NCBI GenBank assembly: GCA_043823065.1
Contig: JBDRBB010000006.1
Location: 79,094-143,093 of the forward strand
Direction: 5' to 3'
Source: Pseudomonadota bacterium
GTDB taxonomy: Bacteria; UBA10199; 2-02-FULL-44-16; DYJF01
DNA: 64,000 nucleotides
Part shown: piece after piece, positions 6,302-39,614 of the stretch
Layout: each line of letters starts with the position of its first letter
Position numbering within the stretch: the stretch's first letter is position 1
Made by a program: the position numbers and the translations under genes
The notes under the pieces: model-generated
Told to the model about the DNA's origin: nothing
The model's input: the letters and a program-made list of their open reading frames with translations, nothing else
Databases searched by the model: none

Positions 6302-6314
6302 AAAGGGAATAAAA

Positions 6315-10706: not shown

Positions 10707-10907
10707 AAGTATTTCCTTTTCGCCTAAAAAACAAAAAAGTTGCGTAAAAAAACAGACATCCTGCACCTTATACCTTATACCCCACATGAAAAGCCGCGTT
10801 ATGTCATATTTTGCTGCATATGGCTGTCACGCTGCACCTTGTGGTTAATAATGAAAAACATATTTTATAGGCAACTTTTTCTTAGAAATGACGATAAGAG
10901 AATACTA

Positions 10908-14648: not shown

Positions 14649-16175
14649 ATGGGAAATTGGGGATTTAATATTGATGGCGGCTTAAATCTTAGGGTCCCCA
14701 CTTCTTTAACACCAAGTGGTGTTGGCTACCACTTTGATCTAGGTGCAATTTATAATTCTACTCGGGAAAACACCTATGATCTTACCTTAGAAATTGATGG
14801 CGGCAGCCAAGAAAGAGATATTGCCAGCTGGGATTATGCCCAAGAAATCAGCACTTGGAACGTAAGCCTTGGTTTAGGCAGACAAGAGAGGCTTGGCAGT
14901 CGTAGTCCAAGCTGGGGACATGGCTATTTAATTCAAAGAAACTCTATTGGTTTAGGTGGCTTAAGACACGGCCTAGATGGCCAAGAAGATCAAGGCCTGT
15001 ATTTTCGCGCCCAATCCACCACAGGCATAGGCTGGAATTTTCATCTCTCTCAAAGTGTAGGTTTAGCCATTGAAGGCGGGCTGCAAATTGGCACCAATGC
15101 TGGAGCTGAAGGAGAAGCTTTAAGCGGAATTGAAGTAGCAATTTTGCTTTCAGCCAGACTTGTTTTTGGTCAAAGCATGAGTGAAGCAGGACAGGCTGAT
15201 GGATTTGAAAATACTTATCATCTTTTAAGTCGTTTACTAGCTATTGCCAGCTCTATTGGCATGGAATTGGCGGTCAATAGACATGCGCAAAGATTTAGCG
15301 ATTTAGGCATTGAAGTTGGAGGAGAAGCAGGACCATCCAGCACAGATGACATTCCTTTCTTGCTCCTAGCCACAAGTGCTTTAGGCAGCAGTGGCCGAGG
15401 CAGTAATTATAGATTTTTTCGCAATTCCCAAGGATGGTGGCGCGTAGTTGATCCTTTAATTGATGTCTTGCAGGGCGGCATTATGTTTGCAGTTGGTGAA
15501 AGCAATGGCAGCCGGGCTTCAGCCACTGCTAGTTTTTTAAGCGCCTTACGCATGGGAGTTAGTTTACTTTTTAGAGATAATGAACGCGGTTCAACCTTAC
15601 TTTGTCATATCATCTATATGCTAACCGCAGGAGTAGCTGCTGCTCTGGCTGAAGACAATGATGCTGGTGAAATTGTGCGTGATGGCGCAGCTTCTGCAAC
15701 CACGGCTATCACTTTATCTACCCCCCACGATGGTGAAACCACTGATATCAATTATGCTGCGGTTTATGAAGGTGGTGGCGATCAAGATGGCAGTTGGCTT
15801 GGCCAGGCTACCATAACTTATAGATATGAAGATTGGTCCTGGTTAATCACTCAGCTATATCTACGCTCTCCTTGGTTTGTACCTGGCGGAAATCATAGCA
15901 CACCTTCTTCCATAGGCACTGGCCTTGGTTTTGATTATTCTGGTAGATTATTTCAAGTCAACATTTTAGCAGAAGTAGGAACTGCTTATAGCGGCCTAGG
16001 TGGAGCAGCAGGTAGAATTGGCGCTAATGCTCAGGTTGGCATGCGCATTCCCATTGGCAGTCGTTTTATCTTAAATTTAGGGCTAACAGGAAGTGCTTAT
16101 ACCCTAGTCCCAAATTCTGGATTCAGATATGGCATAGGTTTTTATTTAGGTGGCGGACTTAGACCACGTCCTTAA
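14649..16175 (+). CDS. Gly-rich, beta-strand-rich protein of unknown function, translationally abutting the upstream lipoprotein gene
   Basis: Its ATG immediately follows the TAA of the upstream gene. The C-terminal third has alternating hydrophobic patterns (RFILNLGLTGSAYTLVPNSGFRYGIGFYLGG). No N-terminal signal peptide is seen. Confidence 0.45.
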   Translation: MGNWGFNIDGGLNLRVPTSLTPSGVGYHFDLGAIYNSTRENTYDLTLEIDGGSQERDIASWDYAQEISTWNVSLGLGRQERLGSRSPSWGHGYLIQRNSIGLGGLRHGLDGQEDQGLYFRAQSTTGIGWNFHLSQSVGLAIEGGLQIGTNAGAEGEALSGIEVAILLSARLVFGQSMSEAGQADGFENTYHLLSRLLAIASSIGMELAVNRHAQRFSDLGIEVGGEAGPSSTDDIPFLLLATSALGSSGRGSNYRFFRNSQGWWRVVDPLIDVLQGGIMFAVGESNGSRASATASFLSALRMGVSLLFRDNERGSTLLCHIIYMLTAGVAAALAEDNDAGEIVRDGAASATTAITLSTPHDGETTDINYAAVYEGGGDQDGSWLGQATITYRYEDWSWLITQLYLRSPWFVPGGNHSTPSSIGTGLGFDYSGRLFQVNILAEVGTAYSGLGGAAGRIGANAQVGMRIPIGSRFILNLGLTGSAYTLVPNSGFRYGIGFYLGGGLRPRP

Positions 16176-19288: not shown

Positions 19289-22285
19289 CTATCTAGCCTG
19301 TTGAGCGGCGCGTTGAAAAGCTTGAGCTATAATAAGCGGGGCTCCTCGCCCTGAATGAGGATCTATTATTTCTCCGCCAACTTCAACAACTATAGGATGT
19401 GGAAATGCAGCTAAAGCTTCTACAAACTCTGCTGCCAATGGAGCTCCACGACCTCTTTCTCTATTCAATCTTCCTGTAACTCTTAATTCCTGAAGAGCTG
19501 GCAACATACTAGTTATTCTTTGTAAAGCTCCTGTAGTTCTGGGATCGCTTCTTGGATTACAACGAATTATTAATCGATCTCCATCTTGTACAAACTCAAT
19601 ACCTGGAGTTCCTCTAAAAATTTCTTGGGAGACAAATCTCTCAAGTGCTGTAAAATCCATAGCAGGGGCACCATCTGCAGTGGGTGTTTGTCCAGCAACC
19701 TCACGCACCCAACCCAAAACTCTATTTACTCTATCATCTAAAGATGCTCGGTCATCGCCCCTTATGACAAGGGTTTGATCAGCATGACCTGGCCACACAA
19801 AATGGATCTCAGAACCTCTTTCTAAACTCGGCAATAAATCACGAAGTTGTCTGCCAAAAGTATCTTCATCCCATAAAATTCTTCCTGCTTCATCTCTGGG
19901 TATTCTAACTTCATGATGTCCAGATTCAACACCTCTATATGCTGCGCCAAAAATATGACTTAACCACTGATCTGCACTGGCTCCCCGAGTTGGAGCAGCA
20001 TCTACTCGTCTACCTAAATCACCATCATCTGGATTTGGTTGGCCTCCGGAGGGTCGGCCAACTGTTACTTGAGGAATCCCTGGGTTTGGTCTAGAACTAG
20101 GCTGAACATCACGTGGGGGTCTTGGTGTTACATCTGGATGATGAGATCCAACTCTGGCTGGACGAGCTGGAGCGTGATCTCTACCATCGGCAATTCCAGA
20201 GCCACTATCACCCCTGCCCCTTCCTGCCGCATGAACTCTGGCCTGGCGCAAAGCTTCATCAGCTTCAGCTTGATCAACTCTTCCGCCTCTTAGCACATCA
20301 CCTGCAGCGCCATCACCACCAACACCTCTAGCTAAAACTCCATGACCTGCTCTAGCTAGGGCAGCTCTCAAATCTCTATTGGAAGCATCTTCGTCATCAT
20401 CATCAACAGCTTGATCAAGGGCAGCAACTATTCCTGAACTTCTTGCCTCTTCGCGTCTGGCTTCTCTAACATCTGCTTCTACATTTTCAATAATTGCTGA
20501 TAAGCCACCTGAAACTGGGGCGCCGTTTAAAGTATACGCTGTGTCTGCTGGAAGCCTACTAAGTTGCGGCCTAGCAGCCCTAAGTGCAGCTAAAGCAAGA
20601 ACTGGATTATCACCAGAAGTAGTAATAGCTACAGTGCTATGTTCGCTATCTGCAGCGCCATGCTCAGCTCTGATAGTTACACCTGATCCTCTTATAGATG
20701 CTATAGCGCTGTTGGCTGCGCTAACGCGGCTATCAACTGTGCGTATTCTAGCTGATCTGGCTGCTTGAGCTGCTTCTCTTGCTTGACGAGCTTCTGCAGC
20801 TGCTCCGGCAGATGCTGCTTCTCGTTCTGCTCTTTGTAAGCGAGTAACCAAAGCTCCGACATTTTCCATTACTTCTGTACCATAACGCAACTGTGTATCT
20901 GGCAACTCAGCAATTGCTGATTGGTTTGCCTGAACAGCTCTTAATACATCTGCAGGATTGCTATCTGTTCTAAAGGTGAGAGAGCTATGCTCTGGAGTAT
21001 GAGAAGCCCTAACATGTCTAGGACCTATCGCACTAGCAACTCTGCCAACCCTAGCTTGCCTTTGTCTGATTGCTTGTTGTCTAGCTTGTTCTGCTTCTCT
21101 TACTTGGCGAGCTTCTTCTGCAGCTCTAGCTGCGGCTGTTTCTCGTTCTGCAACTGCTCTGCGGGCTGCTTCAACCCTTGTCCTTCTTTGTTCTGCTGCT
21201 CTAGCTTCTGTTGCTTCTCTTTCTTCTCTTAATCTTCTTGCTTCTGCAGTTCTAGCTTCTTCACGCTCTCTTGTTGCATCTTGCTGATCTAAGCTGGCAA
21301 CTCTTCTATCAACTATACCTCTAACCGTTTGTAAACGTGCAGCAGCGTCACCAGTAAGCAAACTTCTTTCAAACCTAGCATTAGCTCCAAGTTGCACTAG
21401 AGCTTCTCCAAATTGTTCTGAAAATTCTCCGCCTGGTGATAACAATCTCTGCAAGACTCTTGGTTCTGAACAAGTAATTCTATTATCGTCAGTTACGCTT
21501 ATACCACTAGTTGTTAATCCATTTAAATATGTTCTAGCCTGGGCACTATGATCAACCAAAGGTTCAGAACGTGGTGGTGTTGGTGGTACTGGTGGAGAAG
21601 TAACTGGACGCGCTGGTGATGGCGTCACTGGAGGCGGTGCAGGTGGAGATCGCACTGGAACTGGAGGTGGAGGAGGAGGTTCAACTGGCTCTGGTGCTGG
21701 AGGTGGAGGTGGTGCAGGCTCAACTGGAGGAGCTGGTTCTGCTGGTTCTGGCGTAGCTGCATCATCTGTAGTATCTGCAACCACCTCAGGTTCTTCATCT
21801 GGTTCAACATCATCACTATCAACAACTACATCTGCTTCTTCAGGAGTTGCAGTATCTTCTTCAGCGCCAGCAGCTCTATCACTTCTAGAAGGAGCTGACT
21901 CTTCATTATCATCTATATTAATATCAATCACTCCGCCACTTGGAGCTGGGCCAACATCTCTGCGCGTAACAAAAAATGAACGATTGGCTCCCATTTGCGC
22001 AGGTGTGGCTATTTGATTGCCAGCCATAAACCTGTTTAAGCCCAAAGAGCCATAATTCATGCTTCTGGCAATTAAGCCCTGCATATAACTAAAAGCAGGA
22101 TTAACAGCTGAAAATGAAGTGCCTAGACCGCCAATCATAGCAGCGCCATGGTGAGCAACCGAGCCACTTGTTAAATTGAGCGGACTGCCCACATAAGCCA
22201 TGGTGCTAACTAAGGCTGATAAATTGTTAGTTCCTAAATTGACCACTAAAGCCCCCAATTTGCCCAAAAAATCGTAGGATTTCAC
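19289..22285 (-). CDS. 998-aa low-complexity acidic protein. It has a Gly/Ser-rich N-terminal module, a Pro-rich linker, a long charged ER/K-type helix and a C-terminal folded domain. Paralog of the 575-aa and 500-aa proteins downstream
   Basis: N-terminal NLSALVSTMAYVGSP... resembles the 575-aa protein N-terminus (NSAINSMLTYVSLPP...). PAPPPPPAPEPVEPPPPPPVP linker. REREEARTAEARRLREEREATEARAAEQRR helix. C-terminal PGIEFVQDGDRLIIR resembles the SGIEVVIIRGNGSERILR module of the 500-aa protein. AGA/GCT codon usage is host-like. Confidence 0.6.
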   Translation of the reverse strand: MKSYDFLGKLGALVVNLGTNNLSALVSTMAYVGSPLNLTSGSVAHHGAAMIGGLGTSFSAVNPAFSYMQGLIARSMNYGSLGLNRFMAGNQIATPAQMGANRSFFVTRRDVGPAPSGGVIDINIDDNEESAPSRSDRAAGAEEDTATPEEADVVVDSDDVEPDEEPEVVADTTDDAATPEPAEPAPPVEPAPPPPPAPEPVEPPPPPPVPVRSPPAPPPVTPSPARPVTSPPVPPTPPRSEPLVDHSAQARTYLNGLTTSGISVTDDNRITCSEPRVLQRLLSPGGEFSEQFGEALVQLGANARFERSLLTGDAAARLQTVRGIVDRRVASLDQQDATREREEARTAEARRLREEREATEARAAEQRRTRVEAARRAVAERETAAARAAEEARQVREAEQARQQAIRQRQARVGRVASAIGPRHVRASHTPEHSSLTFRTDSNPADVLRAVQANQSAIAELPDTQLRYGTEVMENVGALVTRLQRAEREAASAGAAAEARQAREAAQAARSARIRTVDSRVSAANSAIASIRGSGVTIRAEHGAADSEHSTVAITTSGDNPVLALAALRAARPQLSRLPADTAYTLNGAPVSGGLSAIIENVEADVREARREEARSSGIVAALDQAVDDDDEDASNRDLRAALARAGHGVLARGVGGDGAAGDVLRGGRVDQAEADEALRQARVHAAGRGRGDSGSGIADGRDHAPARPARVGSHHPDVTPRPPRDVQPSSRPNPGIPQVTVGRPSGGQPNPDDGDLGRRVDAAPTRGASADQWLSHIFGAAYRGVESGHHEVRIPRDEAGRILWDEDTFGRQLRDLLPSLERGSEIHFVWPGHADQTLVIRGDDRASLDDRVNRVLGWVREVAGQTPTADGAPAMDFTALERFVSQEIFRGTPGIEFVQDGDRLIIRCNPRSDPRTTGALQRITSMLPALQELRVTGRLNRERGRGAPLAAEFVEALAAFPHPIVVEVGGEIIDPHSGRGAPLIIAQAFQRAAQQAR

Positions 22286-22629: not shown

Positions 22630-23787
22630 TTGCCATATATGTACACAAGAATTCTAAAAAAACCTAAAAATTCAATTTTGCTCTTTGGCCCCAGAGGGAC
22701 AGGTAAATCAACCTGGCTTAAACAATGCTATCCAGATACTCCAAACTATGATCTGTTAAATACCCAAGAAGCCCTTCGTCTTAGCAAAAACCCTTCACTA
22801 ATCTATAACGAACTTGAAACATACCCACCTGGCACTTGGGTTGTACTGGATGAAGTACAAAAAGTACCAGCTTTGTTAGATGAAGTACATCGCCTAATTG
22901 AAAATAAAAAACTAAATTTTGTACTATCAGGCTCTAGTGCCCGCAAACTAAAAAAAGGCGGGGCCAATCTTTTGGCAGGCAGGGCTCAAATGCAACATAT
23001 GTTTCCGTTTGTTTCCAAAGAAGTGGATTTCAAAATAAAAACACCAGAAGTCTTTCGATTTGGAATGTTGCCTATGGCCTATTTAAGCCAAGAGCCAATT
23101 CCATATTTAAGAACTTATGTTGAAGCTTATTTGGCTGAAGAAATTAAGGGCGAGGCTCTAACCAGAAATATTGGAGGATTTGCCCGATTTTTAGAAATTG
23201 CAGCTAGACAAAATGGTCAAATCACCAATGTCTCCAACATTGCCAGGGATGCCCAAGTTGCCAGGCAGACTGTCCAAGGATATTTTGATATATTAGTAGA
23301 TACTTTGTTAGGTTATTGGCTGCAACCCTGGAAATTAAAACGAGCAACAAAACAAGTTGCTCATCCTAAATTTTACTTCTTTGATGCTGGCGTAGCTAGG
23401 GCTTTATCAAACAGACTTCCTTACCCTTTAACCAATGAAGAACTGGGGCCTTTGTTTGAGACATTTATTATTGGAGAAATTCAGGCCTACTTAGCTTATA
23501 CTGAATTAAACTATCCCCTATATTTCTGGAGTAGCCATGACAATGTTGAAGTTGATTTATTATTGGAAACTAAAAAAGGTTTTTTAGCTTTGGAATTTAA
23601 ATCTGCCACAAATTGGAACAAGAGCTTTAATAAAGGGCTAACCCGCATTAGCTCTGAACTTGAAGCAAACAAGGTTCGCTGTATTGGGGTTTATAATGGA
23701 GAAAGGCCAGCTAAGTTTGACTCTATTGAAGTTTTGCCACTTCTAACCTTTTTAGAAAAACTTTGGGCAGGAGATTTGATTGCTTAA
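22630..23787 (+). CDS. AAA+ ATPase of the DUF4143 / COG1373 family
   Basis: Walker A LLFGPRGTGKST, Walker B VVLDEVQ, C-terminal DUF4143-like region. Second paralog at 43434-44651. Confidence 0.75.
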   Translation: MPYMYTRILKKPKNSILLFGPRGTGKSTWLKQCYPDTPNYDLLNTQEALRLSKNPSLIYNELETYPPGTWVVLDEVQKVPALLDEVHRLIENKKLNFVLSGSSARKLKKGGANLLAGRAQMQHMFPFVSKEVDFKIKTPEVFRFGMLPMAYLSQEPIPYLRTYVEAYLAEEIKGEALTRNIGGFARFLEIAARQNGQITNVSNIARDAQVARQTVQGYFDILVDTLLGYWLQPWKLKRATKQVAHPKFYFFDAGVARALSNRLPYPLTNEELGPLFETFIIGEIQAYLAYTELNYPLYFWSSHDNVEVDLLLETKKGFLALEFKSATNWNKSFNKGLTRISSELEANKVRCIGVYNGERPAKFDSIEVLPLLTFLEKLWAGDLIA

Positions 23788-23816
23788 AAAAAACCGCCTG
23801 GAGAGAGGCGGTTCTA
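23784..23816. terminator. Hairpin plus A/T tract (CTTAAAAAAAACCGCCTGGAGAGAGGCGGTTCT), copy 1 of a 30-bp direct repeat
   Basis: Stem CCGCCT/AGGCGG. Near-identical copy at 24793-24825. Confidence 0.55.
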
Positions 23817-23845
23817 TATTGTGGCTTGTGGGGACCTTATAAAGC

Positions 23846-23917
23846 GACCATTGACTATTGACCATGGACCAAAAAACAAGGGGTGTGATTGCGAGGAGCG
23901 TTAGCGACGAAGCAATC
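23846..23917. repeat. Compound small repeats: CCATTGAC palindromes plus GTGATTGCGAGGAGCGTTAGCGACGAAGCAATC
   Basis: gaccattgactattgaccatggacc, then the inverted-repeat family member. Confidence 0.7.
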
Positions 23918-23984
23918 TCGGAAGAGTCGGTATTGTGTATTATTGACACCTAATGGGTGACCCCGGTTTTGTTTGTTAGGAATG

Positions 23985-23999
23985 GGGGAAAACGTCCCC
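23985..23999. repeat. GGGGGAAAACGTCCCC hairpin, copy 2, downstream of the DUF4143 ATPase gene
   Basis: Direct repeat of 22567-22582. Confidence 0.7.
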
Positions 24000-24032
24000 A
24001 AGTATTATTGTCCCCTAGCTTTTATTAGGTCT

Positions 24033-24353
24033 TTACGCAGCAATGGCTTCTTTTCGAACTCTGCTAAACAAAGGTGAAAGATTATCTTTTTGAAATGTAT
24101 ATGGATCAGTAAGGACAATCTGAAGGCGAGGATCAATCTGATAGGCAATTACAACAACTTGTTTTTCATATTTTTCTTTATTTTTTTTAAATACTCTTGC
24201 TACTAAACAAATGTCAATATCGCTATCAGGTCTAGCGTCACCTCTAGCATATGATCCAAATAGATATATTTTTACTTTAGGAAAAGCTTGCTTTTCTAAT
24301 TCAGCTTGAAATTTTGAAATTATTTTTCCAATAGATTTTGCAACCATAGCCAA
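24033..24353 (-). CDS. Nucleotidyltransferase (MNT/MntA-type antitoxin-like) of a HEPN/MNT pair
   Basis: LFGSYARGDARPDSDIDICLV (GSx10DxD minimal nucleotidyltransferase motif). Overlaps the upstream HEPN gene by 34 bp. Confidence 0.75.
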   Translation of the reverse strand: MAMVAKSIGKIISKFQAELEKQAFPKVKIYLFGSYARGDARPDSDIDICLVARVFKKNKEKYEKQVVVIAYQIDPRLQIVLTDPYTFQKDNLSPLFSRVRKEAIAA

Positions 24354-24721
24354 AGCTCCTTGCTTTGCTCTAAATATTTTTTAGCATAATTTTTATTAAC
24401 TTTTTTATAAAAACTTTTCAAATCTTCTGGATATCTAATTTCTAAATTAAATTTATTTATTTGGTCAAACAACTCGATCTGAGCTTTGGTTAACTCCAAA
24501 TTTGCCTTGCCAGCTAAATACAATAAATTATGCGTAAATGGAGGATGCTCTTTAGCAACCTTTGCCACCAAAGCTTTTAATAGTTTTTCCAACATCAAAT
24601 GACAAAGAAATAAACAATAATCATACTTACCGGTTCTATATAAAGACAAGGATACTTCTCTATCATGCTTTGCTGCTTCAAACCAATATTTGATTACTTT
24701 GGATATATCCTTATTAGTCAT
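24320..24721 (-). CDS. HEPN domain protein (HepT-type toxin-like) of a HEPN/MNT pair
   Basis: 134 aa from the internal Met MTNKDISKVIKYWFEAAKHD... The tracked 5' extension translates the terminator repeat. Confidence 0.65.
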   Translation of the reverse strand: MTNKDISKVIKYWFEAAKHDREVSLSLYRTGKYDYCLFLCHLMLEKLLKALVAKVAKEHPPFTHNLLYLAGKANLELTKAQIELFDQINKFNLEIRYPEDLKSFYKKVNKNYAKKYLEQSKELWLWLQNLLEK

Positions 24722-24792
24722 AAATTTAGAATATACTTTGTGCACATTTTTTTCAACTAATAATACCGATCCCTTCGCGGGGGTGGGATTGG

Positions 24793-24825
24793 TTAAAAAA
24801 AACCGCGTGGAGAGAGGCGGTTTTG
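24793..24825. terminator. Hairpin plus T tract (GTTAAAAAAAACCGCGTGGAGAGAGGCGGTTTT), copy 2. Probable terminator of the minus-strand 500-aa gene
   Basis: Direct repeat of 23784-23816. A run of eight T's follows the stem on the minus strand. Confidence 0.55.
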
Positions 24826-24858
24826 AACACACATATTATATATACTGAACAATGATTA

Positions 24859-26361
24859 TCATTCAGGGTGAGTTAAGCTAAAATTACCTAAACTAGGACC
24901 ACTTCCGTCTCCACCAAATATATTGCCACCCATTTCCAAAGTGGCACCTCCAGGAGGAATACTACCCTGGCTTGGCAAATACCTTGAATCCAAGGTCAAG
25001 GTGTTATCACCACCTGCTTCCTCTTCATCTGGCGGCTGTAAAAAATCAACAAAATCTTCATAAGTATATCTAACTGGAGTCTGATCAGCATCTTCATTTA
25101 TTTCAACTGGTTCAGAGCTTCTTTCTTCAATAGGTTCATCTTCTGGCTCCGCTGAAGAAGGTTCAACACTTCCTTCGCGCAAAACTCTTGCTGAACCATC
25201 TCCTCTAATTATTACAACTTCTATTCCTGAAGGCATGTTATCTACAGCTGTTCTTATAGCTTGGCGACGACTAGTTGCCTCATCTCCATCTCCACCAAAT
25301 TCTCTATCAAAAATACGGCGCTGACGATTTTGAAAATCAATAACCAGCCGAGCAGGTTGATCTTCCCCTTGTAATTCAACTCTGAACTGCGCTAAAGGTT
25401 CTGCTTCATTATTAAGTCTAAAACTATTCATTAAAGGTTCTAATCTACCATCCATTAAATTACAAGATGATTGACACTCTTCATCAGCTTCCCTTAAAAT
25501 TCTTTCTGAACCATTTCCTCTAATTATTACAACTTCTATTCCTGAAGGCATGGCATCTACAGCTGTTCTAATATCAGCTCGACGCCTGATTGCTTGTTCT
25601 CCCTCACCACCAAATTCCCTATCAAAGATTTGTCGCTGTGATCTAGAAAAATCAATAATCAAGCGCGTAGGCTGATCTGCTCCTTGTGACTCAAGCCTAA
25701 ATTCAGCTAGAGGGTTTTCTTGACCTTCAACTCTAAAATTTGCTGCTAATGCCTGAAATGCATCTAATCCACCAGTTGTCCTCTGCTCATGGTTAGAAAC
25801 TTCTGGTGCTGAGGAAGCAAACACCTCCAAAGCCAAACCAACAGGGTCATCAATTGGCACTGCATTATGGCTCGCTGCACGGCTAAGCGCCTCGGCATAT
25901 ATACCAAAGCTTTCATCATTACCTTCAAGAATCGCTCTTGCTTCAGCAGTAAAAAGTGAAGGACTATATTCAAATAAAGACATTATTGCATGGCATTGTT
26001 CTAGAACTTCAAGATTAGCATAAGCATCTAATTCAGATTCCTCTAAAATATTATTCTCATTTGAATCACAACTCCAAATATCTGTGCCTAATTGAATAAT
26101 ATCTGCTTGAGTTATTCTGCGAAAGACAATGAGTTCGCCTTGTCCATTGGGGACCTCAATTTCACCTCCAGTAAATAAGTCACCATTGGCAGTTAAAACG
26201 CATTGATTATCTGAATCTAGCAAACAAAATTCACCACTATCACCTGGTTCAATTTGGTCAGTATCAGAATTTTCAATTAATTCTATATTACCTATCCTAG
26301 TTTGCGTTTCATCATCTAGAATAAATAAGCCTTCTTCACTTTGTTGAATAATCAATCCCAT
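24859..26361 (-). CDS. 500-aa acidic protein with an internal tandem duplication of a ~80-aa module, function unknown
   Basis: PLAEFRLESQGADQPTRLIIDFSRSQRQIFDREFGGEGEQAIRRRADIRTAVDAMPSGIEVVIIRGNGSERILRE is duplicated as PLAQFRVELQGEDQPARLVIDFQNRQRRIFDREFGGDGDEATSRRQAIRTAVDNMPSGIEVVIIRGDGSARVLRE. No signal peptide or TM. Confidence 0.65.
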   Translation of the reverse strand: MGLIIQQSEEGLFILDDETQTRIGNIELIENSDTDQIEPGDSGEFCLLDSDNQCVLTANGDLFTGGEIEVPNGQGELIVFRRITQADIIQLGTDIWSCDSNENNILEESELDAYANLEVLEQCHAIMSLFEYSPSLFTAEARAILEGNDESFGIYAEALSRAASHNAVPIDDPVGLALEVFASSAPEVSNHEQRTTGGLDAFQALAANFRVEGQENPLAEFRLESQGADQPTRLIIDFSRSQRQIFDREFGGEGEQAIRRRADIRTAVDAMPSGIEVVIIRGNGSERILREADEECQSSCNLMDGRLEPLMNSFRLNNEAEPLAQFRVELQGEDQPARLVIDFQNRQRRIFDREFGGDGDEATSRRQAIRTAVDNMPSGIEVVIIRGDGSARVLREGSVEPSSAEPEDEPIEERSSEPVEINEDADQTPVRYTYEDFVDFLQPPDEEEAGGDNTLTLDSRYLPSQGSIPPGGATLEMGGNIFGGDGSGPSLGNFSLTHPE

Positions 26362-26395
26362 AATTCCTCTTTGATTCTCTTAATAAAATGATTGA

Positions 26396-28123
26396 TTAAA
26401 TTTGAGTAGCAGCGTCATTATCTAATCTTCTTGCAGAGCTACTTGGCCTTCTTGTACGCGCTGCTCTTTGTAAAATTCCCTGAATTGTTTCAGTACGCTG
26501 ATCTTCTTCAATTTCTCTTAAGTTTTGTTCGCCAAGTAACAACTGTGTTCCTTCTGGCAATCTATTCATAATCTCAATTAATCGAGCTACTTGTGCTTCT
26601 TCATATTGATATCCGCGCTCAAAGCTAAGTTGGATATTGCCATCTTCAGTTCTAGTAATAGTTGCATTTTCTCCAAATACTTCTCTTAGCCCAGTAATTG
26701 CTTGATCAATTGCATCTGGTGCTTCAGGAGCTGGCAAGCCATCTGTTCTGCGTTGATGCAAGCGGTCGATCATTTGGCCCATATATTCTTGAGGAGACAT
26801 TTCTGGATTAGCTAAGCGAAATTCTTCTACGCTGCCACCTGGCCAAGATAGTCGTCCGCTAGTTTCATGGAAAGTTGCTCCATCAATCAATTGGGGCTCT
26901 TGTCTGGCTTCTACTTCTGAACCTTCTTCTCCACCTTCTTCAGCTTCAACATTTCTTAATGCATAAGCTCGGCCATCTTGGATTAAAATTGTTTGTCCTC
27001 CTGTATAATCGTCTGAGCGCTCTCCTTGGCCTGGTGCTGCAACTTGATATACTTGATACTCATCGCCTCCATAAGATTGGTTTTCACCAGTTGGTCTGAG
27101 CATTACATAATCTGCAGGAGCAGCTCTCTGGATATATAGCTGGTTACTGCCACGTCGTCCCGTACCTGCTACAAAAGGAACTTGTCTATACCCACCATCT
27201 TGTTCCAGATAATAATTTTCACCTACTTGATAAATGTTTGTACCTTCAGGAATACTTAATTCTTCAGTATCTCCACCTGTAACATTAAAGACTCGGGCAT
27301 CTTGCCTTTGACCGTCAATCTCTATACTACTATTTTGCTCTCTTGGTTCAACTGTAACATGCGTGCCTCTTGCTGTTGGAGGTCTAGAAAATGGACTGCG
27401 GCCTTCTAATAAACCGCTTCCATAACGCACAAATTCTAAAGCTTCTTCATCATCCATTGGTTCATCGCCAAAACTTCTGGCGATCCAAGCTCCATATTGT
27501 TCTGCCCAATCCTCAGAATCTCTCGCAGGTAGGCCTCTCATTATTTCATCAAATCTAGTGCGATCACCATCTGCTTCGTCTTCAACTCTATCAATAATTC
27601 TTCCAGCTTCCTCTGGAGTATAACCTCGTTCATCTAAATTCTGTACAAGCCGTCTGCGTTGATCAGGTTCTAAAGTGAAATCATCCTCTGATGAATCATC
27701 CACATCTCTATCTCCATCAACATCTGAATCTCCCCAATCGCCACTGCTACTAGGAGCAGGAGGTGGGGGAGCAGACATATATTGCTGGCCTGCTGGCATT
27801 ACTCCGCCAAAACCTGGAGCGCCTGCTTGGCCTGGGGCGGCAATTCCACCAGCAGCAGTGATAGCCCTGGTATATCCTTCCAAAGCATTTTCGCCCAGCC
27901 AACCAGCGCCTTGGTGCATACCTCGCGTAGATTCAAAATTTGCAACTCGATTAAAAACATTCATCATAGCGCCATAACTGGAATCAAAAGAATCAACACC
28001 AGCTGAGCCTCCGCTATATAAACTCAAGCCTTGGCCAATTGAGCTGCCATAACTATGAGCTGGCGGCAAACTGACATAAGTTAACATGCTGTTAATTGCT
28101 GAATTAAGCACTGACCCCTCCAT
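26396..28123 (-). CDS. 575-aa acidic low-complexity protein with a Gly/Ser-rich N-terminal module (paralogous to the 998-aa protein N-terminus) and a Pro-rich linker
   Basis: N-terminal MEGSVLNSAINSMLTYVSLPPAHSYGSSIGQG..., PPPPAPSSSGDWGDSDVDGDRDVDD. The operon is contiguous with flanking genes (20-bp overlap with the 385-aa gene). Confidence 0.65.
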   Translation of the reverse strand: MEGSVLNSAINSMLTYVSLPPAHSYGSSIGQGLSLYSGGSAGVDSFDSSYGAMMNVFNRVANFESTRGMHQGAGWLGENALEGYTRAITAAGGIAAPGQAGAPGFGGVMPAGQQYMSAPPPPAPSSSGDWGDSDVDGDRDVDDSSEDDFTLEPDQRRRLVQNLDERGYTPEEAGRIIDRVEDEADGDRTRFDEIMRGLPARDSEDWAEQYGAWIARSFGDEPMDDEEALEFVRYGSGLLEGRSPFSRPPTARGTHVTVEPREQNSSIEIDGQRQDARVFNVTGGDTEELSIPEGTNIYQVGENYYLEQDGGYRQVPFVAGTGRRGSNQLYIQRAAPADYVMLRPTGENQSYGGDEYQVYQVAAPGQGERSDDYTGGQTILIQDGRAYALRNVEAEEGGEEGSEVEARQEPQLIDGATFHETSGRLSWPGGSVEEFRLANPEMSPQEYMGQMIDRLHQRRTDGLPAPEAPDAIDQAITGLREVFGENATITRTEDGNIQLSFERGYQYEEAQVARLIEIMNRLPEGTQLLLGEQNLREIEEDQRTETIQGILQRAARTRRPSSSARRLDNDAATQI

Positions 28124-29261
28124 TCACGTCTCTAATAAAATCTGCGGCGCGCAGTAAACCTTTGGCCTCACCCACAATTCTTTCTGACAAAGGCAAGGTT
28201 TCGCGAATGCGATCACCTAGGCGATCATTTAGCTCGCGAATTTCCTGCAGGCGATGCTCTACGCGTTGAATGACGTGTTGTTCTAAGATATTTCTTTTAG
28301 CCAGAACTGTTTCCAGGCCTGGATTTGGTTCATTAAAAATAATTAAGGATTCATCTTCTTGCGGAATGTCGCGCACAAAAACTGGTCTGGCCAAAGCTGC
28401 ATCTGAACCACCTTCTTCGCTAGTATCTCCACCTGCATCTGCGCCAACTCCGCCATCTAAAACTCGGCCTAAATTTCCACCTGCTTCAGACTGATAAACA
28501 GCACCGCCCCGACTGGTTCTAGATGATCTGGAACTGCTGCGATCTGAGCCATCTTTCTCTGAATCTTGGCCTCGTCTTACATCTCTTGGTTCAGCGCTTT
28601 CGCCGCGCACTTGTGGTTGCGGCTGCACAAAACGAGAGGCAAATTCTGCTGCTCTGCTAGCATCTGGCTGCCTGGCTTCCTGAGGTAATCTAGGCTGCTC
28701 AGCAGATCTGGGCTGAGGTGTTGCTGGCCTATTTACTTGAGGTTGAGGTCTAGCTTGTGGCGCTCCTTGATTTGGAACTGGATTTGGATTTTGAGGCTGC
28801 ACAAAGTTTGGAGCTTGTTGCTGTTGATTGGGCAGCGTAGAATTATTGCCTGGTTGTATATCTGGCCGGGCCACAACTGCTTGTGGAGTGGCAGCCTGCT
28901 GGGCTGGTTGAAGAGCTCTGCCTCTAGCTGCTAACTGATTCAAACCTCTGGCTTGAGATTGCGCCTGACGCACTGCTTGTTCATTTCGTTTAGCTGCTTC
29001 TTGCTCAACCTCTGGTCGCGAGGCTTGCGTTTGGCGTTCTGGTTGTCTGGATTCAGGAGTGCGGCGCGCACTAATATCTGCAGCTCTGGCACGCTGGGCA
29101 GCACGTTCAGTTCTCTCTGCCCTGGAAAGATTAGTTACCATTTCCTTGGCCACAGTCCTTCTTTGTTCTATATGCTGATCATGGCGTTCTTCGCGGGCAC
29201 GTTCCAGACCTTGTTTTTCTTGCCAACCTTCAGCAAAATGATTTGAACCAACTTTAGACAT
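28104..29261 (-). CDS. 385-aa Gln/Arg/Pro-rich low-complexity protein, first gene of the three-gene minus-strand operon
   Basis: QPQNPNPVPNQGAPQARPQPQVNRPATPQPR region. C-terminal predicted folded segment LIIFNEPNPGLETVLAKRNILEQHV. No signal peptide or TM. Confidence 0.6.
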   Translation of the reverse strand: MSKVGSNHFAEGWQEKQGLERAREERHDQHIEQRRTVAKEMVTNLSRAERTERAAQRARAADISARRTPESRQPERQTQASRPEVEQEAAKRNEQAVRQAQSQARGLNQLAARGRALQPAQQAATPQAVVARPDIQPGNNSTLPNQQQQAPNFVQPQNPNPVPNQGAPQARPQPQVNRPATPQPRSAEQPRLPQEARQPDASRAAEFASRFVQPQPQVRGESAEPRDVRRGQDSEKDGSDRSSSRSSRTSRGGAVYQSEAGGNLGRVLDGGVGADAGGDTSEEGGSDAALARPVFVRDIPQEDESLIIFNEPNPGLETVLAKRNILEQHVIQRVEHRLQEIRELNDRLGDRIRETLPLSERIVGEAKGLLRAADFIRDVNGGVSA

Positions 29262-29289
29262 CTGGGAACTCTCCTCCCCGTTTATTAAT

Positions 29290-29317
29290 AACGTACAGCG
29301 TACAGCGCACAGCGTCT
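29290..29317. repeat. Tandem heptamer repeat (TACAGCG)n-like
   Basis: aacgtacagcgtacagcgcacagcgtct. A similar array lies inside the metH coding sequence at 4344-4378. Confidence 0.6.
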
Positions 29318-29755
29318 AATATTGCGTAACATATTAATATTACAAGACTTATTCATAGGTTAAGCCTCAAATAAGCCATTGTTTCGTCAATATATAATGC
29401 AAGCGAGAGGCCAAAATTAGAAATAAGGAGTCAGAAGACAGGAGTCATAATAAAAAACCTTAAAAGCAAGTAATAACAACTAGTTATACAGCGGAAAAAT
29501 CAGACGGAGCAAATTATCTTCATAAAAATAGCAAATAAGTCAAAATTTAGGGCTGAAATTGAGGAATGTAGTCTCCATCAATTAGCAGCTTAGATATGAT
29601 AGCCGCTTCCCTTATAATTTTTGCATAGAAGCAATAACAAGTAACTTGTTTCAGACTGCAAATAAAAAACCTGGATCGCCACGTCGCCCTCTGGGCTCCT
29701 CGCGATGACGCTCTCAGACCATTTCGATTTTCAACATTTAGAAAACTGAACTGAG

Positions 29756-29890
29756 TGCAACTAAGTGTTGCTTTGCGGCGTGCGAGCGAGCCATGACAGC
29801 AGCCTATATATTATGGCGAGCGAAGGACGCTTTCAAAATTTCTGGCGCGTGAGGAAATTTTGGATTTAGCAAAGCAATACTTAGTTGCAC
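29756..29890. promoter_or_regulatory. Long inverted repeat (22-bp arms, ~91-bp spacer) in the divergent intergenic region upstream of the ParA-like gene
   Basis: gtgcaactaagtgttgctttgc (29756-29777) pairs with gcaaagcaatacttagttgcac (29869-29890) with one mismatch. It could be an operator pair or a structured RNA. Confidence 0.45.
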
Positions 29891-30005
29891 GCAGTGTTTT
29901 CTCTCTTTACGCACTTTAAAAAAAATGATATTTTCAGTTTGCCTCTGGGACGAGACAATCATAAAAATTATTAGATCTTTAACAAATCCAAGTGGGAGGG
30001 GAGTC

Positions 30006-30968
30006 ATGACAGAGCATTATCAGACAGAAAATGAAAATCTATTTCTTGATCCAGAAGAGGTTGCAGAATTTGAAGATTGGGATAGCAAAGAAGAAGAGGC
30101 AACAGATGCAACTTCAACAGCAGTTGATGTAAAACCAGCCAAGAGCCAGGTGATTTGTGTAGCCAGCGGCAAAGGCGGTACTGGCAAGACCATGGTGGCA
30201 GCTAATTTGGCAGTCTCCCTGGCTAGAGAAGGGTTAAAAGTTCTTTTAATTGACGCTGATTTCAGTTTAGCCAATTCCCATCTTATTCTGGGTTTAGAAC
30301 CTGAATACGATGTATCTTCTGTTTTCACAGGTGAAAAAACAGTTTCAGAAATTATCATTCCTGGTCCGGGTGGATTAAGACTGGTTCCTGGTGGATCAGG
30401 TTTTAGTGAACTGGCCATGTTGGGCGATGAGAAATTTTTACAACTCATCCAAGGCTTAAAAGATTTGGAAGAAGAATCTGATATAATTTTAGTAGATCTG
30501 CCAGCTGGCATTAATCCTCAAGTCATGTGTCTTTTAAATGCTGCTCATGAAATCATTGTGGTCACCACTCCAGAAGTTACTTCTTTGGTAGATGCTTATG
30601 CGTTGATTAAGTCCTTAACCAGAATGACCGACAAAGTATCTCCTCAAATCATAATTAATCGCGCCAAAGATAAAGCCAGGGCCATGGTGGCTTTTCAAAA
30701 GATTTTTAGCGTAACCAACAAACACTTAAACGGCAAAGTATCTCCAAAATTATTAGGCTGGGTACCGCAGAATTGGTATGTACTGAATTCAGTGGCAGCC
30801 AGAAAACCATTGGTACTGCGTCATCCCCAGTGTTTTGCCACAGCCTGCATGGAAATGATTGCCGCCAAAGTCTTAAGACGGCATGTTAAGTGGCTAGATC
30901 AACAAGCAGAAAGTTTAATTTATCCATCATACTTTGGGAAACTAGAAGAAATTGTCTATGGACGCTAA
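30006..30968 (+). CDS. ParA/MinD-family P-loop ATPase (deviant Walker A) with an acidic N-terminal extension
   Basis: VICVASGKGGTGKTMVAANLA (KGGxGKT), LLIDADF, ILVDLPAG Walker B-like. Start MTEHYQTENENLFLDPEEVAEFEDWDSKEEE preceded by a GGGAGGGGA ribosome-binding site. Divergent from the 385/575/500-aa operon. Confidence 0.8.
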   Translation: MTEHYQTENENLFLDPEEVAEFEDWDSKEEEATDATSTAVDVKPAKSQVICVASGKGGTGKTMVAANLAVSLAREGLKVLLIDADFSLANSHLILGLEPEYDVSSVFTGEKTVSEIIIPGPGGLRLVPGGSGFSELAMLGDEKFLQLIQGLKDLEEESDIILVDLPAGINPQVMCLLNAAHEIIVVTTPEVTSLVDAYALIKSLTRMTDKVSPQIIINRAKDKARAMVAFQKIFSVTNKHLNGKVSPKLLGWVPQNWYVLNSVAARKPLVLRHPQCFATACMEMIAAKVLRRHVKWLDQQAESLIYPSYFGKLEEIVYGR

Positions 30969-31626
30969 TTACAAGGCGGGTAGACAACTGAATAAGTTTA
31001 TTAACAGACCTCAGCGGCGGAACATTTTCAATGCTCCGCTTACGGAGATTATTCATCTTCTCAAACAGAACCCCAAGGTAATTGATCCGGAAATACACCC
31101 CATTGATGCTGATCTATTCATACCCAATATAGGTGAAATAGATATAGTAGGAGTTGACGCAAATCATTTAGTTATGGTCAGTACTTTTATCGATATCAGG
31201 GAAGATCACCTGCGCAAAGCTGCTAACATTAATCAATGGGTGTTTGAAAACTTAAGCGTGTTAAAACAGACTTATGCTACCAAAGGATTGTCTCATAATT
31301 TTACGCCGCGTATCATCTTGCTTTGCGCTAGAGTACATCCCAGCGCTAATCCTTTATTGCCTTTTATCTCAGATCTTCCGTTAGAAGTTTTCCGCTATCA
31401 ATATTTTAAGAATGAAACAAACCGTTATTTAGAACTGACCAAGGTAGAGCCAAATCAAAATAGAATAAAAACTGCCAGCTCTCCTTTATTTACTAAGCTA
31501 CCCACCAGAAAAGATGTTGAGCTCACTGCTGAAGAACTAGGCGCCTTTTATGAAGCTGCAGCTGAGCTGGAAGGTGAGGCAGAAGCTGCCCCGGCACTTG
31601 ATTTTGATGGTCCGTATTTTAATTAA
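30952..31626 (+). CDS. 224-aa hypothetical protein, translationally coupled to the ParA-like gene (17-nt overlap)
   Basis: Segment DADLFIPNIGEIDIVGVDANHLVMVSTFIDIRED weakly resembles a PD-(D/E)xK / DUF91-like core strand. Acidic C-terminal tail AAAELEGEAEAAPALDFDGPYFN. Confidence 0.45.
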   Translation: MSMDANYKAGRQLNKFINRPQRRNIFNAPLTEIIHLLKQNPKVIDPEIHPIDADLFIPNIGEIDIVGVDANHLVMVSTFIDIREDHLRKAANINQWVFENLSVLKQTYATKGLSHNFTPRIILLCARVHPSANPLLPFISDLPLEVFRYQYFKNETNRYLELTKVEPNQNRIKTASSPLFTKLPTRKDVELTAEELGAFYEAAAELEGEAEAAPALDFDGPYFN

Positions 31627-31628
31627 AC

Positions 31629-32372
31629 TCACTTTTCTAAAAACGGTTTAAACAAATCAATGGGTATTGGAAACAAAGTAGTTGTGTTATTTTCACTAGC
31701 TACTTCCCTTAAGGTTTGCAAATAGCGCATTTGCAAGGCCATGGGATGGCCACCCATCAGCTTGGCTGCTTCCACCAATTTTTCCGCAGCTTGAAATTCA
31801 CCCAAAGCATTGATTATCTTGGCCCGTCGTTCGCGCTCTGCTTCAGCTTGCCTAGCCATGGCCCTTTTTAGTTCCTCAGTGATATCCACATGCTTTACTT
31901 CCACATTAGCAACTTTAATACCCCAGGGATCTGTTTGTTTATCCAAGATTTCCTGAATCTGCTCATTAATTTCTTCTCGTTTAGACAAGAGCTCATCAAG
32001 CTCTCTTTGACCAATTACGCTTCTTAAAGTTGTTTGCGCCATTTGGCTAGTGGCAAAACCATAGTCTTGCACCTCAATCACTGCTTTGTTTGCCTCTAAA
32101 ACTCTAAAATAGACAACAGCATTAACCTGCACTGAAACATTGTCTTTGGTTATAATATCTTGCGGTGGCACATCCAGGGCAAGTAAACGCAAACTCACAC
32201 GCACCATGCGGTCAATGGGTTTAAACACAAAAATAATACCTGGCCCTTTTGGTTCTGGCAAAACCCGACCTAAGCGAAAAATTACGCCACGCTCATATTC
32301 ATTTAAAATTTTGATGCAAGATAAAAGATACAAAACCAAAAAAGTGATTATAACTATCCAAGGTAATGGCAT
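31629..32372 (-). CDS. SPFH / band-7 (stomatin/prohibitin-like) family membrane protein
   Basis: N-terminal [13 protein letters not shown]...[33 protein letters not shown] (band 7 signature), C-terminal coiled-coil. Confidence 0.8.
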
Positions 32373-37706: not shown

Positions 37707-39614
37707 TTAGGCATCTTCAATTTCTTGGTGGGCTAATTCTAAATCATTTTCTAAAAACTCTGCCATATTTTGCATCTCTAACAAAGCAGTTTCAATATCT
37801 TCCGGGGTTAATTCATTGTTGTCTGTAAATTGTTGCACAAGATAGGTAACCCCTTCTCGAAAATCTTCATCATTTTCCATGAGATAAGCAAAATAACCAA
37901 TACCAGCTGCTGCAGCGCCAACACCCACTGCTGCAAAAGCAGCAATCGCGCCCAATACAACCAACACCGGCGCTGCAGCTTCAGCACTTAAGGCGCCGCC
38001 TATTGCCATTACCGCAGACCTGGCCACGCCACTAATTCCAGCTTGCACTAAACGCTGACCAGCGCGAATGGCCAAGTGTTCAAGCATGATATAAATAGTA
38101 GCGCTGGTAATATTAAACATGGAACGATCTGCTCCAGATTGGGGGACATTAATACCCAACCTAGACAACCCAGCTTCCACTGGATCAGCAACCATGGGAA
38201 TACCAACCGCAGCCATACCAAGACGAACCAATGAAATAAAAGAAGCCCTGGGCACTGGCATACCAGCACGCGTATAACTGCTAACCATGGTGGCAAATAA
38301 ACCAGCAGTAATTGAAGTATGCACAGTATCTTGCCCAGCCTCTGGCATTTCTTCGCCAGTCACGCCGCGATAACTTGCATTGGCAGCTAAGGGACCAAGT
38401 TCTGGCAAGGCCAATAAGCCATAGGTGCCTGCCACGCGGCCACCATTGTTTAAAAAACCAGTCACCCGTCCTAACACTGGTGGTAGTGTTTCAACATATC
38501 TAACATTTGTATTTAAAATACGTGGCCTACCGGTATCAAAAACCCGTTCCAATCTATTTCTTATGTCCTCTAGAGCACGCGTATGGCGACGAATTCTGCG
38601 TTGTTCCCCTTGATGTAACTCTGGAGGTTCAGGGCTTTCGTCTAATAGTTCCACTCTCCTGTTTATTCCATCATCACCATTAGATCTTTGCATCCTGCTT
38701 CTGGCTGTCAAAAATTCTCCTAACATGTCAGACGTGATTTCAAATTGTTGTGTTTCAATGGAATTTATCCTGCCAAATCTGGCCAGATTTTCATTATAGA
38801 TTCTTATTGCTGATCTTAAGGCTTGATCGCCATTAGAACCTTGGCAATAAATATCAAGTTGTCTGGAAACCTCTCTGGCTGCAAATTGAATATTGCTAAA
38901 ACTCAAAACCAACTCCGTATTTCGCGTTAAAACATCAAAATTGATATTTTTTAATGCCCGATCAATAGCTCGCGGCTGGACAAGACGATGAAACAAATCT
39001 CCAATTTGCCTTGGGTGACTTGATCTGTTGCTTATAGCATTTCTTATAGCATCTGCAGTTTGCATTCTCCCATTACTAGCTTCAGATAAATCATTGACAT
39101 ACCTATCTCTGGTTATTTCATGCAGGTTTGACCTTCTGTTTCTTCTAGTATTTATTGGAGTTAAAAAATCAGCTACATCTCTTAAATCACTTAATACCTG
39201 TTCATGCTGTCTTAAAGACCGCATAAAATTAACCCTATTTCCATTATTATCTGGATGGCGCAAATAGTTCTGCCACGCCTGATTCAACTCCTGTCTGGAT
39301 TGCTCATAATAATTACGAAAATCAGCATTAGTAATGCCATTACTTGCTATATCAGCTTCTCTATGAGCACGAATAATTCCTATTAGTTGATACATATTTA
39401 GGGCATCAAGACGTTGATTTTCATTTTCCTGATTAGGATTGGCAAAAAGATTTAAGGGATTTCTGGCAGGCACTAAAACATATTCAGATTGATTTTCATC
39501 TGTGGATTCTGGCTGGGGATTAACCCAAGGCAAAGGAGAAAATAAGATGCGCGCAAATTCTTGCGGATCTCTGGTGGTTGCTAAAACTCTTAATTGATTT
39601 AAAAAATCACCCAT
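37707..39614 (-). CDS. 635-aa hypothetical protein with a large Arg-rich soluble N-domain and a C-terminal Ala/Gly-rich TM segment
   Basis: AAAPVLVVLGAIAAFAAVGVGAAAAGIGYFAYL hydrophobic helix near the C-terminus. No recognisable catalytic motif. Confidence 0.5.
   Translation of the reverse strand: MGDFLNQLRVLATTRDPQEFARILFSPLPWVNPQPESTDENQSEYVLVPARNPLNLFANPNQENENQRLDALNMYQLIGIIRAHREADIASNGITNADFRNYYEQSRQELNQAWQNYLRHPDNNGNRVNFMRSLRQHEQVLSDLRDVADFLTPINTRRNRRSNLHEITRDRYVNDLSEASNGRMQTADAIRNAISNRSSHPRQIGDLFHRLVQPRAIDRALKNINFDVLTRNTELVLSFSNIQFAAREVSRQLDIYCQGSNGDQALRSAIRIYNENLARFGRINSIETQQFEITSDMLGEFLTARSRMQRSNGDDGINRRVELLDESPEPPELHQGEQRRIRRHTRALEDIRNRLERVFDTGRPRILNTNVRYVETLPPVLGRVTGFLNNGGRVAGTYGLLALPELGPLAANASYRGVTGEEMPEAGQDTVHTSITAGLFATMVSSYTRAGMPVPRASFISLVRLGMAAVGIPMVADPVEAGLSRLGINVPQSGADRSMFNITSATIYIMLEHLAIRAGQRLVQAGISGVARSAVMAIGGALSAEAAAPVLVVLGAIAAFAAVGVGAAAAGIGYFAYLMENDEDFREGVTYLVQQFTDNNELTPEDIETALLEMQNMAEFLENDLELAHQEIEDA

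Follow-up and report, generated by a model that had tools for sequence, protein, structure and literature searches.

The stretch of DNA analyzed here (the window) comprises 64,000 nucleotides of contig JBDRBB010000006.1 (positions 79,094 to 143,093), from a metagenome-assembled genome (MAG) labelled as a Pseudomonadota bacterium (GCA_043823065.1), and the object of this work is a gene coding for a ParA/MinD-type ATPase together with the gene of a small partner protein located directly after it. Five genes were recognized in the region: two open reading frames (ORFs) on the plus strand (29925–30968 and 30952–31626) and three on the minus strand, packed in an operon-like manner (28104–29261, coding for 385 amino acids (aa); 26396–28123, 575 aa, with a 20-nt overlap; and 24859–26361, 500 aa). 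The initial annotation of this DNA described the pair as transcribed divergently from the three-gene operon and its first gene as coding for a deviant-Walker-A ATPase, and both points hold, since SGKGGTGKT and LLIDADF are encoded in the first ORF (29925/30006–30968, plus strand) and a spacer separates the two divergent groups (Table 1). For the ATPase, ATG 30006 is the most likely start, because a Shine-Dalgarno sequence (GGGAGGGGAG) is found closely upstream, the NCBI call also begins there (P0003, 320 aa) and stop codons interrupt the longer upstream frame in a sister genome. In the case of the partner, the start is most likely ATG 30958 (222 aa, NCBI P0001), which overlaps the ATPase ORF by 11 nt. 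The alternative start, TTG 30952, would give 224 aa and a 17-nt overlap. The translational coupling proposed earlier is retained, with the difference that the figure of 17 nt applies only to the TTG start. The overlap of 11 nt, with the ATG placed in the stop region, recurs in several relatives.

Table 1. Coordinates of the features described at the locus (positions within the window).
Feature	Position	Strand	Basis or remarks
MinD/FlhG-type ATPase, 320 aa	30006..30968	+	Pfam AAA_31, ParA and CbiA matches
Acidic, predicted disordered N-terminal extension of the ATPase, ~46 aa, without DQAxxLR	30006..30143	+	net charge, pLDDT, motif scan
Deviant Walker A, GKGGTGKT	30168..30191	+	read in sequence; invariant in alignment A4
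C-terminal short helix YFGKLEEIVY, candidate membrane-targeting	30930..30959	+	AF2 helix, residues 309-318, confident
Overlap of ATPase stop and partner ATG, 11 nt	30958..30968	+	recurs in L001, L003, L005, L089; translational coupling
Partner protein, 222 aa (224 aa from TTG 30952)	30958..31626	+	homologue directly 3' of ATPase in 12 lineages
NucS_C-type PD-(D/E)XK domain, predicted catalytically dead	31039..31446	+
C-terminal peptide ELTAEELGAFYE, consensus [LI][ST]x[DE]E[ILV]xxF[FY]	31519..31554	+	conserved in partner family
Extreme C-terminal FxGPYF(N/T/S) motif including stop codon	31603..31626	+	conserved in close partner family
Divergent spacer, 744 bp, with strongly folding inverted repeat 29750-29895	29262..30005	.	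RNA fold z -7.5
Three-gene operon, judged outside the module	24859..29261	-	385, 575 and 500 aa

We have found that the two plus-strand genes travel together. A homologue of the partner lies directly 3' of the ATPase in all the lineages with an available flank, namely the window, L001, L003, L004, L005, L087, L089, L090, L091, L092, L096 and L097, over a range of ATPase identity to the window protein that goes from 90% down to 46%, and at this far end the genomic contexts of the pair are unrelated. A scan of metagenomes with the partner contributed only two loci, both with the ATPase upstream, and the matches listed from a scan of genome contigs with the ATPase alignment were mostly distant MinD-like genes. 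The exception was L093 (ATPase 43% identical), where the downstream protein of 146 aa was not recognized by the partner profile. The Planctomycetota provide three loci (L075, L021 and L024) in which the ATPase, 32–35% identical, is preceded directly 5' by a protein of 335–365 aa that is NucS_C-like, a family to which the partner is also connected as described below. Because the partner adjoins the ATPase across these 12 lineages and in the Planctomycetota loci, we consider that both genes constitute a conserved, uncharacterized two-gene module. The initial annotation had already taken them for a cognate pair, and the synteny of the 224-aa gene with the ATPase is indeed conserved.

The residues expected for catalysis in the ATPase (K56, K61, D83, D85 and D164) were invariant in the alignment with 25 relatives, and therefore the enzyme should be active. 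Its best-scoring NCBIfam models were those of MinD, yet the scores were under the cut-offs (152 bits versus 201.75 for minD_arch and 124 versus 212.9 for minD_bact), while ParA_partition gave 57.8 bits versus a cut-off of 180. Among the sequences of the PDB the ranking was FleN (144 bits), FlhG (121), archaeal MinD (118), bacterial MinD (65–93) and Soj (60). The AlphaFold (AF2) model, with a predicted local distance difference test (pLDDT) value of 84.6, led to a fold-based ranking in agreement with the one based on sequence. Specifically, the Foldseek comparison gave an E-value of 1.7e-24 with 35% identity to FleN and a TM-score of up to 0.92 over 274 columns to FlhG, and McdA was only 19% identical (E 6.7e-11). 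These data place the ATPase on the FleN/FlhG-MinD branch and outside the ParA branch of nucleoid binders to which PomZ and McdA belong.

Two features define FlhG: a DQAxxLR helix at the N-terminus, which activates FlhF, and a membrane-targeting sequence at the C-terminus (PMC12826062). We did not find DQAxxLR in the window ATPase, nor in 116 of the 120 best hits of the family, nor in the ATPases of the three Planctomycetota loci; the four carriers were the weakest of the 120 hits and are genuine FlhG proteins. A disordered acidic N-tail replaces here the FlhF-activating helix of FlhG: counted from ATG 30006, the first ~46 residues contain 15 D/E versus 3 K/R, the net charge is -12 across the 48 residues before the Walker A strand, and residues 1–39 have pLDDT values below 50, i.e., are predicted to be disordered. 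The acidic extension announced in the initial annotation is thus present. Pfam scans of the window ORFs of at least 150 aa produced no min, par or flagellar match (six large ORFs matched nothing), neither flhF nor flagellar genes were found in the 64-kb window or in the called flanks of ten relative lineages, and minC and minE were not found in the window. Since there is no DQAxxLR helix and no flagellar genes were seen nearby, the ATPase is FleN/FlhG-like by descent and stands outside the flagellar FlhG family as defined. Together with the scores below the cut-offs, these results agree with the earlier claims that min, par and flh genes are lacking in the vicinity and that the pair is outside the Min, Par and flagellar FlhF/FlhG systems. 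At the other end of the protein the family follows the pattern SYFxxLExxVY or SFxxxLxRxVF. The strict form S[YFA]FxxL was found in 69 of the 120 best hits, 25 further C-termini listed had kindred forms (e.g., SFxxxLxxxVF), and the Foldseek alignment of the ATPase with FlhG (4rz2) reaches the C-terminus.

The partner belongs to a rare family. When 1.84 billion representatives were scanned in full with HMMER, 33 were retrieved with E<=1e-3, of which 11 had E<=1e-10, and the protein itself had no match to Pfam, NCBIfam or PADLOC families, NucS_N included. The profile of the family gave nothing significant against the PDB sequences, whereas the fold search did tie the partner to NucS. Besides, Pfam NucS_C matches 8 of the 34 aligned members and PDDEXK_4 matches 3. 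In the alignment, the distant relatives keep G-x-ID...(V/I)ELK where the close family reads GEIDIVGVDANHLVMVSTFI; in every close member the catalytic Asp is retained and the Glu and Lys are replaced (VMVSTFI). The partner, which had been described as of unknown fold, is NucS_C-like, with an inactivated PD-(D/E)XK fold. Just ~25–30 disordered residues are found ahead of the nuclease-like domain, the N-terminal DNA-binding domain of NucS being absent. The first ~25 residues carry a charge of +4 in the window protein and are basic in most relatives, while the tail after the domain is strongly acidic. In summary, the protein consists of a short N-terminus (in most members basic), a PD-(D/E)XK domain of NucS type that has lost E and K of the catalytic site, and a motif-bearing acidic tail. 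In a distant member of the family (P0135, L094 140–1045) a PilZ domain is fused to the NucS_C-like domain, in a contig that starts without sequence upstream of P0135; the fusion hints that the NucS_C-like domain can come under the control of cyclic di-GMP (c-di-GMP).

The motif of the tail, [LI][ST]x[DE]E[ILV]xxF[FY], was found in 10 of the 11 locus-encoded partners and in 19 of the 33 representatives, over a background of 0.088 per 1000 aa, with variants such as LSREEIDAF, ITQEEIDDF and LSGKEIDEF. In the form LTxEE[IL]xxF[FY] it is also loosely similar to the sliding-clamp-binding (PIP) motif, [IL]xxF[FY]. The window partner shares the C-terminal motif with the upstream proteins of the Planctomycetota loci, which end in VSQEEFDAF, LTREEYSAL or VTADEYEAFF. 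Judging from the residues, the motif closely resembles the EIDAL peptide of FliM/FliY. In FliM/FliY this N-terminal EIDAL motif is both required and enough by itself for binding to FlhG (bioRxiv 10.1101/2022.04.21.489128).

Our interpretation, to which we would give a probability of roughly 0.6, is that the locus codes for a self-contained ParA/MinD two-gene module, formed by a FleN/FlhG-like ATPase and a cognate partner derived from NucS and catalytically dead, and that the divergent operon is not its cargo. The ATP-bound dimers of this ATPase family bind a matrix that is either the membrane, by a C-terminal amphipathic helix, or DNA, by a basic surface (PMC11407121; 10.1101/2022.06.09.495121), and their partners usually act by a basic, disordered N-terminus that stimulates hydrolysis and release (10.1101/2022.06.09.495121). 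As in MinD and FlhG, the ATPase would alternate between a monomer and an ATP-bound dimer on a surface, most likely the membrane, which it would bind through the C-terminal helix. The partner would dock on the ATPase and reset it by means of the EIDAL-like C-terminal peptide, the basic N-terminus, or both; the first way of docking is proposed because of the resemblance of the motif to the FliM/FliY peptide bound by FlhG. The basic N-terminus may stimulate hydrolysis, and the dead nuclease domain would act as an adaptor to the cargo or target.

Several observations speak against this picture or parts of it. No cargo was identified for the pair. The C-terminal helix of the ATPase contains in this lineage two Glu, which is unusual in helices that target the membrane, and its hydrophobic moment, at rank 67 of 310 windows, does not stand out. 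The N-terminus of the partner varies in net charge from -3 to +8 among the members, whose start codons are uncertain. The nuclease-like domain is mildly acidic (pI 4.8–5.8), and therefore simple DNA binding by the partner is disfavored. Since the peptide that resembles EIDAL is short and acidic, the likeness should be taken as a lead rather than as a test, and stretches of the LTEEQIAEF type turn up in unrelated proteins too. Finally, the labels of the host lineage conflict, and therefore flagellar genes may sit elsewhere in the genome.

The closeness to FleN could also be read in terms of regulation, with a pair of the FleN-FleQ type in which the partner binds DNA or a regulator via the dead nuclease fold and the ATPase is an ATP-dependent anti-activator. 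FleN is actually the closest solved relative, DNA binding is common among PD-(D/E)XK folds, and the sequestration of FlrA/FleQ by FlhG-ATP dimers has been described (PMC11407121). However, both the domain and the tail of the partner are acidic, helix-turn-helix and AAA+ domains are absent and the spacer shows no operator-like repeats, so we regard such a pair as unlikely.

The divergent operon was at the center of the initial annotation, in which the ATPase, with the 224-aa protein as adaptor, was thought to position the acidic, low-complexity products of the three minus-strand genes, in the way of PomZ with PomXY or of McdA with McdB and carboxysomes. In a charge-hydropathy plot all three proteins fall with the disordered ones, and transmembrane-grade hydrophobic segments are missing from them, which is in favor of this model. 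The description of the proteins was nevertheless correct only in part: acidic are the one of 575 aa (pI 4.4) and the one of 500 aa (pI 4.1), whereas the one of 385 aa, rich in R, A, Q and P, has a pI of 9.5 and is therefore basic, and low complexity affects the 500-aa protein only partly, as it has an ordered-looking N-terminal third and a pair of 98-aa repeats (residues 202–299 and 307–404) sharing 60% identity. Neither these proteins nor the 998-aa product of a nearby gene gave any match in Pfam, NCBIfam or PADLOC, and BLASTP among the four found no paralogy. Detectable homologues of the 575-aa protein were limited to two among 5.8 billion clusters, a 97% identical fragment and P0156, from a sister MAG. 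In a contig of this MAG (L095) homologues of 401, 648 and 638 aa appear in the same order, and codons 1–28 of the ATPase are encoded at the start of its reverse complement, which overlaps the start of L001 by 30 nt; the divergent arrangement is, that is, also present in the sister genome.

This second occurrence counts for the cargo model, but the sister is a very close relative (ATPase 90% identical) and therefore the shared order is most simply explained by inheritance from a common ancestor. In seven lineages with ATPases 59–79% identical and a readable upstream region, a uracil-DNA glycosylase (UDG) gene is found in that place, sometimes followed by a radical-SAM gene, and in L091 and L092 (46–47% identical) the pair is in unrelated contexts. 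Again, tblastn of the 385-, 575-, 500- and 998-aa proteins against the 10-kb flanks of the relatives found no homologue. Only the window and the one sister MAG have the operon next to the pair, i.e., its synteny with the ATPase is not conserved. Moreover, the ATPase is off the nucleoid-binding ParA branch, and the operon adjoins a hot spot of insertion of toxin-antitoxin genes and transposases. All this makes the operon look like a local insertion, a lineage-specific neighbor and not a cargo, and the positioning of its products by the pair is, in our opinion, very improbable. The hot spot is located between the 998-aa gene, which has a homologue in L095, and the operon (22630–24832 in the window, 6122–7832 in L095). 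The window carries there a DUF4143/AAA_14 ATPase and a HEPN/nucleotidyltransferase pair, and the sister MAG a DUF4258/MqsA pair and an IS200-type Y1 transposase. The guanine-plus-cytosine content is higher at 18–30 kb, operon region included (0.43–0.48), than in the flanks.

The origin of the partner in the mismatch endonuclease NucS, together with the UDG gene directly upstream in several relatives, could suggest a module of DNA repair, defense or partition, be it an ATPase with a nuclease or a type Ib ParA with a centromere-binding protein. We find this hardly credible, given that the catalytic E and K are gone throughout the close partner family, the partner lacks the DNA-binding N-terminal domain of NucS, neither a meaningful match in PADLOC nor iteron- or centromere-like repeats were found, and the locus is chromosomal, amid housekeeping genes. 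The defense version was rejected on account of the dead catalytic residues and the lack of a PADLOC model, and the reading of the spacer as a centromere or iteron because its short repeats are present in two copies only. The UDG genes lie directly 5' of the module and on the same strand (L004 8347–9123, L089 2523–3176, L090 1–243), a curious position beside a NucS-derived protein that may be merely inherited gene order. An ordinary flagellar FlhG or division MinD with its true partners elsewhere and an incidental gene downstream is the least plausible explanation, for although JGI labels many members of the family as 'FlhG' and the fold and best matches are those of FleN/FlhG and MinD, there is no DQAxxLR, the scores are under the MinD equivalog cut-offs, flhF, fli, minC and minE are missing from the window and from every locus examined, and in 12 lineages the gene that follows is both conserved and coupled to it in translation.

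As to the surroundings, the inverted repeat in the spacer has 27-nt arms (93% complementary) separated by 92 nt and lies 110–260 nt upstream of the ATPase start. It folds as RNA with -77 kcal/mol (z -7.5) and is single-copy in the window. We found no Rfam match and no iteron-like repeat array in the spacer. At the same site the sister MAG has a different palindromic repeat of ~140 nt, which recurs between Band_7 and sdhB (L095 reverse complement 400–542 versus L001 2519–2662, in both orientations). The repeat of the window could be an element similar to a miniature inverted-repeat transposable element (MITE) or a leader structure. Downstream of the pair, a Band_7/slipin gene (31629–32372, minus strand) is tail-to-tail with the partner gene, only 2 nt apart, an arrangement kept in L001, L003, L004, L005, L087 and L090. 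NfeD usually follows, except in the window and L001, where sdhB and sdhA come after Band_7. The pair is tandemly duplicated in L005 (10001–13918), where a second ATPase of 318 aa and a partner paralogue of 181 aa are followed by a 205-aa ORF, and in L091 (8001–10760) a second ParA-like gene (274 aa) and then an 85-aa ORF come after it.

Large ORFs without Pfam matches are unusually dense in the window (1122, 1302, 508, 998, 635 and 484 aa, at 7419–16175, 19289–22285, 37707–39614 and 45120–46574), and two proteins with thrombospondin type-3 repeats are encoded at 5324–7256. Fragments 90–97% identical to the 385- and 575-aa proteins (KJ957_08530 and KJ957_08535, on a 2.9-kb contig) come from a MAG labelled 'Candidatus Omnitrophica', versus the label 'Pseudomonadota bacterium' of the MAG of the window, so that at least one label or the binning is doubtful.

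The self-contained module of ATPase and dead-NucS partner represents a ParA/MinD-type two-gene system with a new class of partner. The literature that could be searched on NucS with ParA/MinD, on restriction-endonuclease-like partners and on orphan FlhG contained no account of such a pair. ParA/MinD ATPases are the main spatial organizers of bacterial cells, and many of them are orphans with unknown partners. One orphan clade is now provided with a conserved partner, a recycled and inactivated mismatch-endonuclease fold. Two peptides of this partner, its basic N-terminus and its C-terminal motif similar to EIDAL, are candidates for binding and stimulating the ATPase. At the same time, the tempting assignment of the adjacent disordered proteins as cargo is removed as unsupported. 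If the proposed mode of docking were true, the logic of the FlhG interaction would be reused outside flagella. Going further, one might imagine a multi-phylum class of ParA/MinD systems in uncultured lineages, Planctomycetota included, in which an ATPase derived from FlhG and uncoupled from flagella keeps EIDAL docking, controls a dead-NucS adaptor and positions or gates an unrecognized structure, a generalization that we put forward only tentatively and that is rather unlikely to hold in full.

A comparison with the known systems helps to delimit the pair. It differs from ParABS and type Ib partition in the low scores of ParA_partition and Soj and in the absence of repeat arrays. McdAB and PomXYZ are similar in having a ParA/MinD-family ATPase with a non-canonical partner, but McdA and PomZ belong to the nucleoid-binding ParA branch and the ATPase here does not, and in those systems the genes of the cargo and of the disordered or coiled-coil partners are conserved along with the ATPase, while the operon proteins here are not. 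With MinD-MinE/MinC the pair has in common the deviant Walker A ATPase, the C-terminal helix and a small partner located directly 3' in the operon; it departs from them in the sub-cut-off score, in the lack of minC and minE and in a partner whose fold is unrelated to MinE. The partner has the C-terminal PD-(D/E)XK fold of NucS/EndoMS, although with S-T-F or similar at the E-x-K position, without the N-terminal DNA-binding domain, with an acidic domain and with a gene always paired with a MinD-type ATPase. FleN/FlhG differ in possessing the DQAxxLR enhancer helix that the ATPase lacks, no flhF or flagellar neighbors having been seen here. The ATPase has an acidic disordered N-tail in place of that helix, and a dedicated, coupled partner of nuclease-derived fold is not known for FlhG or FleN. 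They are nonetheless the closest to the ATPase by both sequence and fold, share with it the DADxGLAN-type switch region and the short C-terminal helix, and FlhG binds on FliM/FliY the EIDAL motif that the peptide of the partner resembles.

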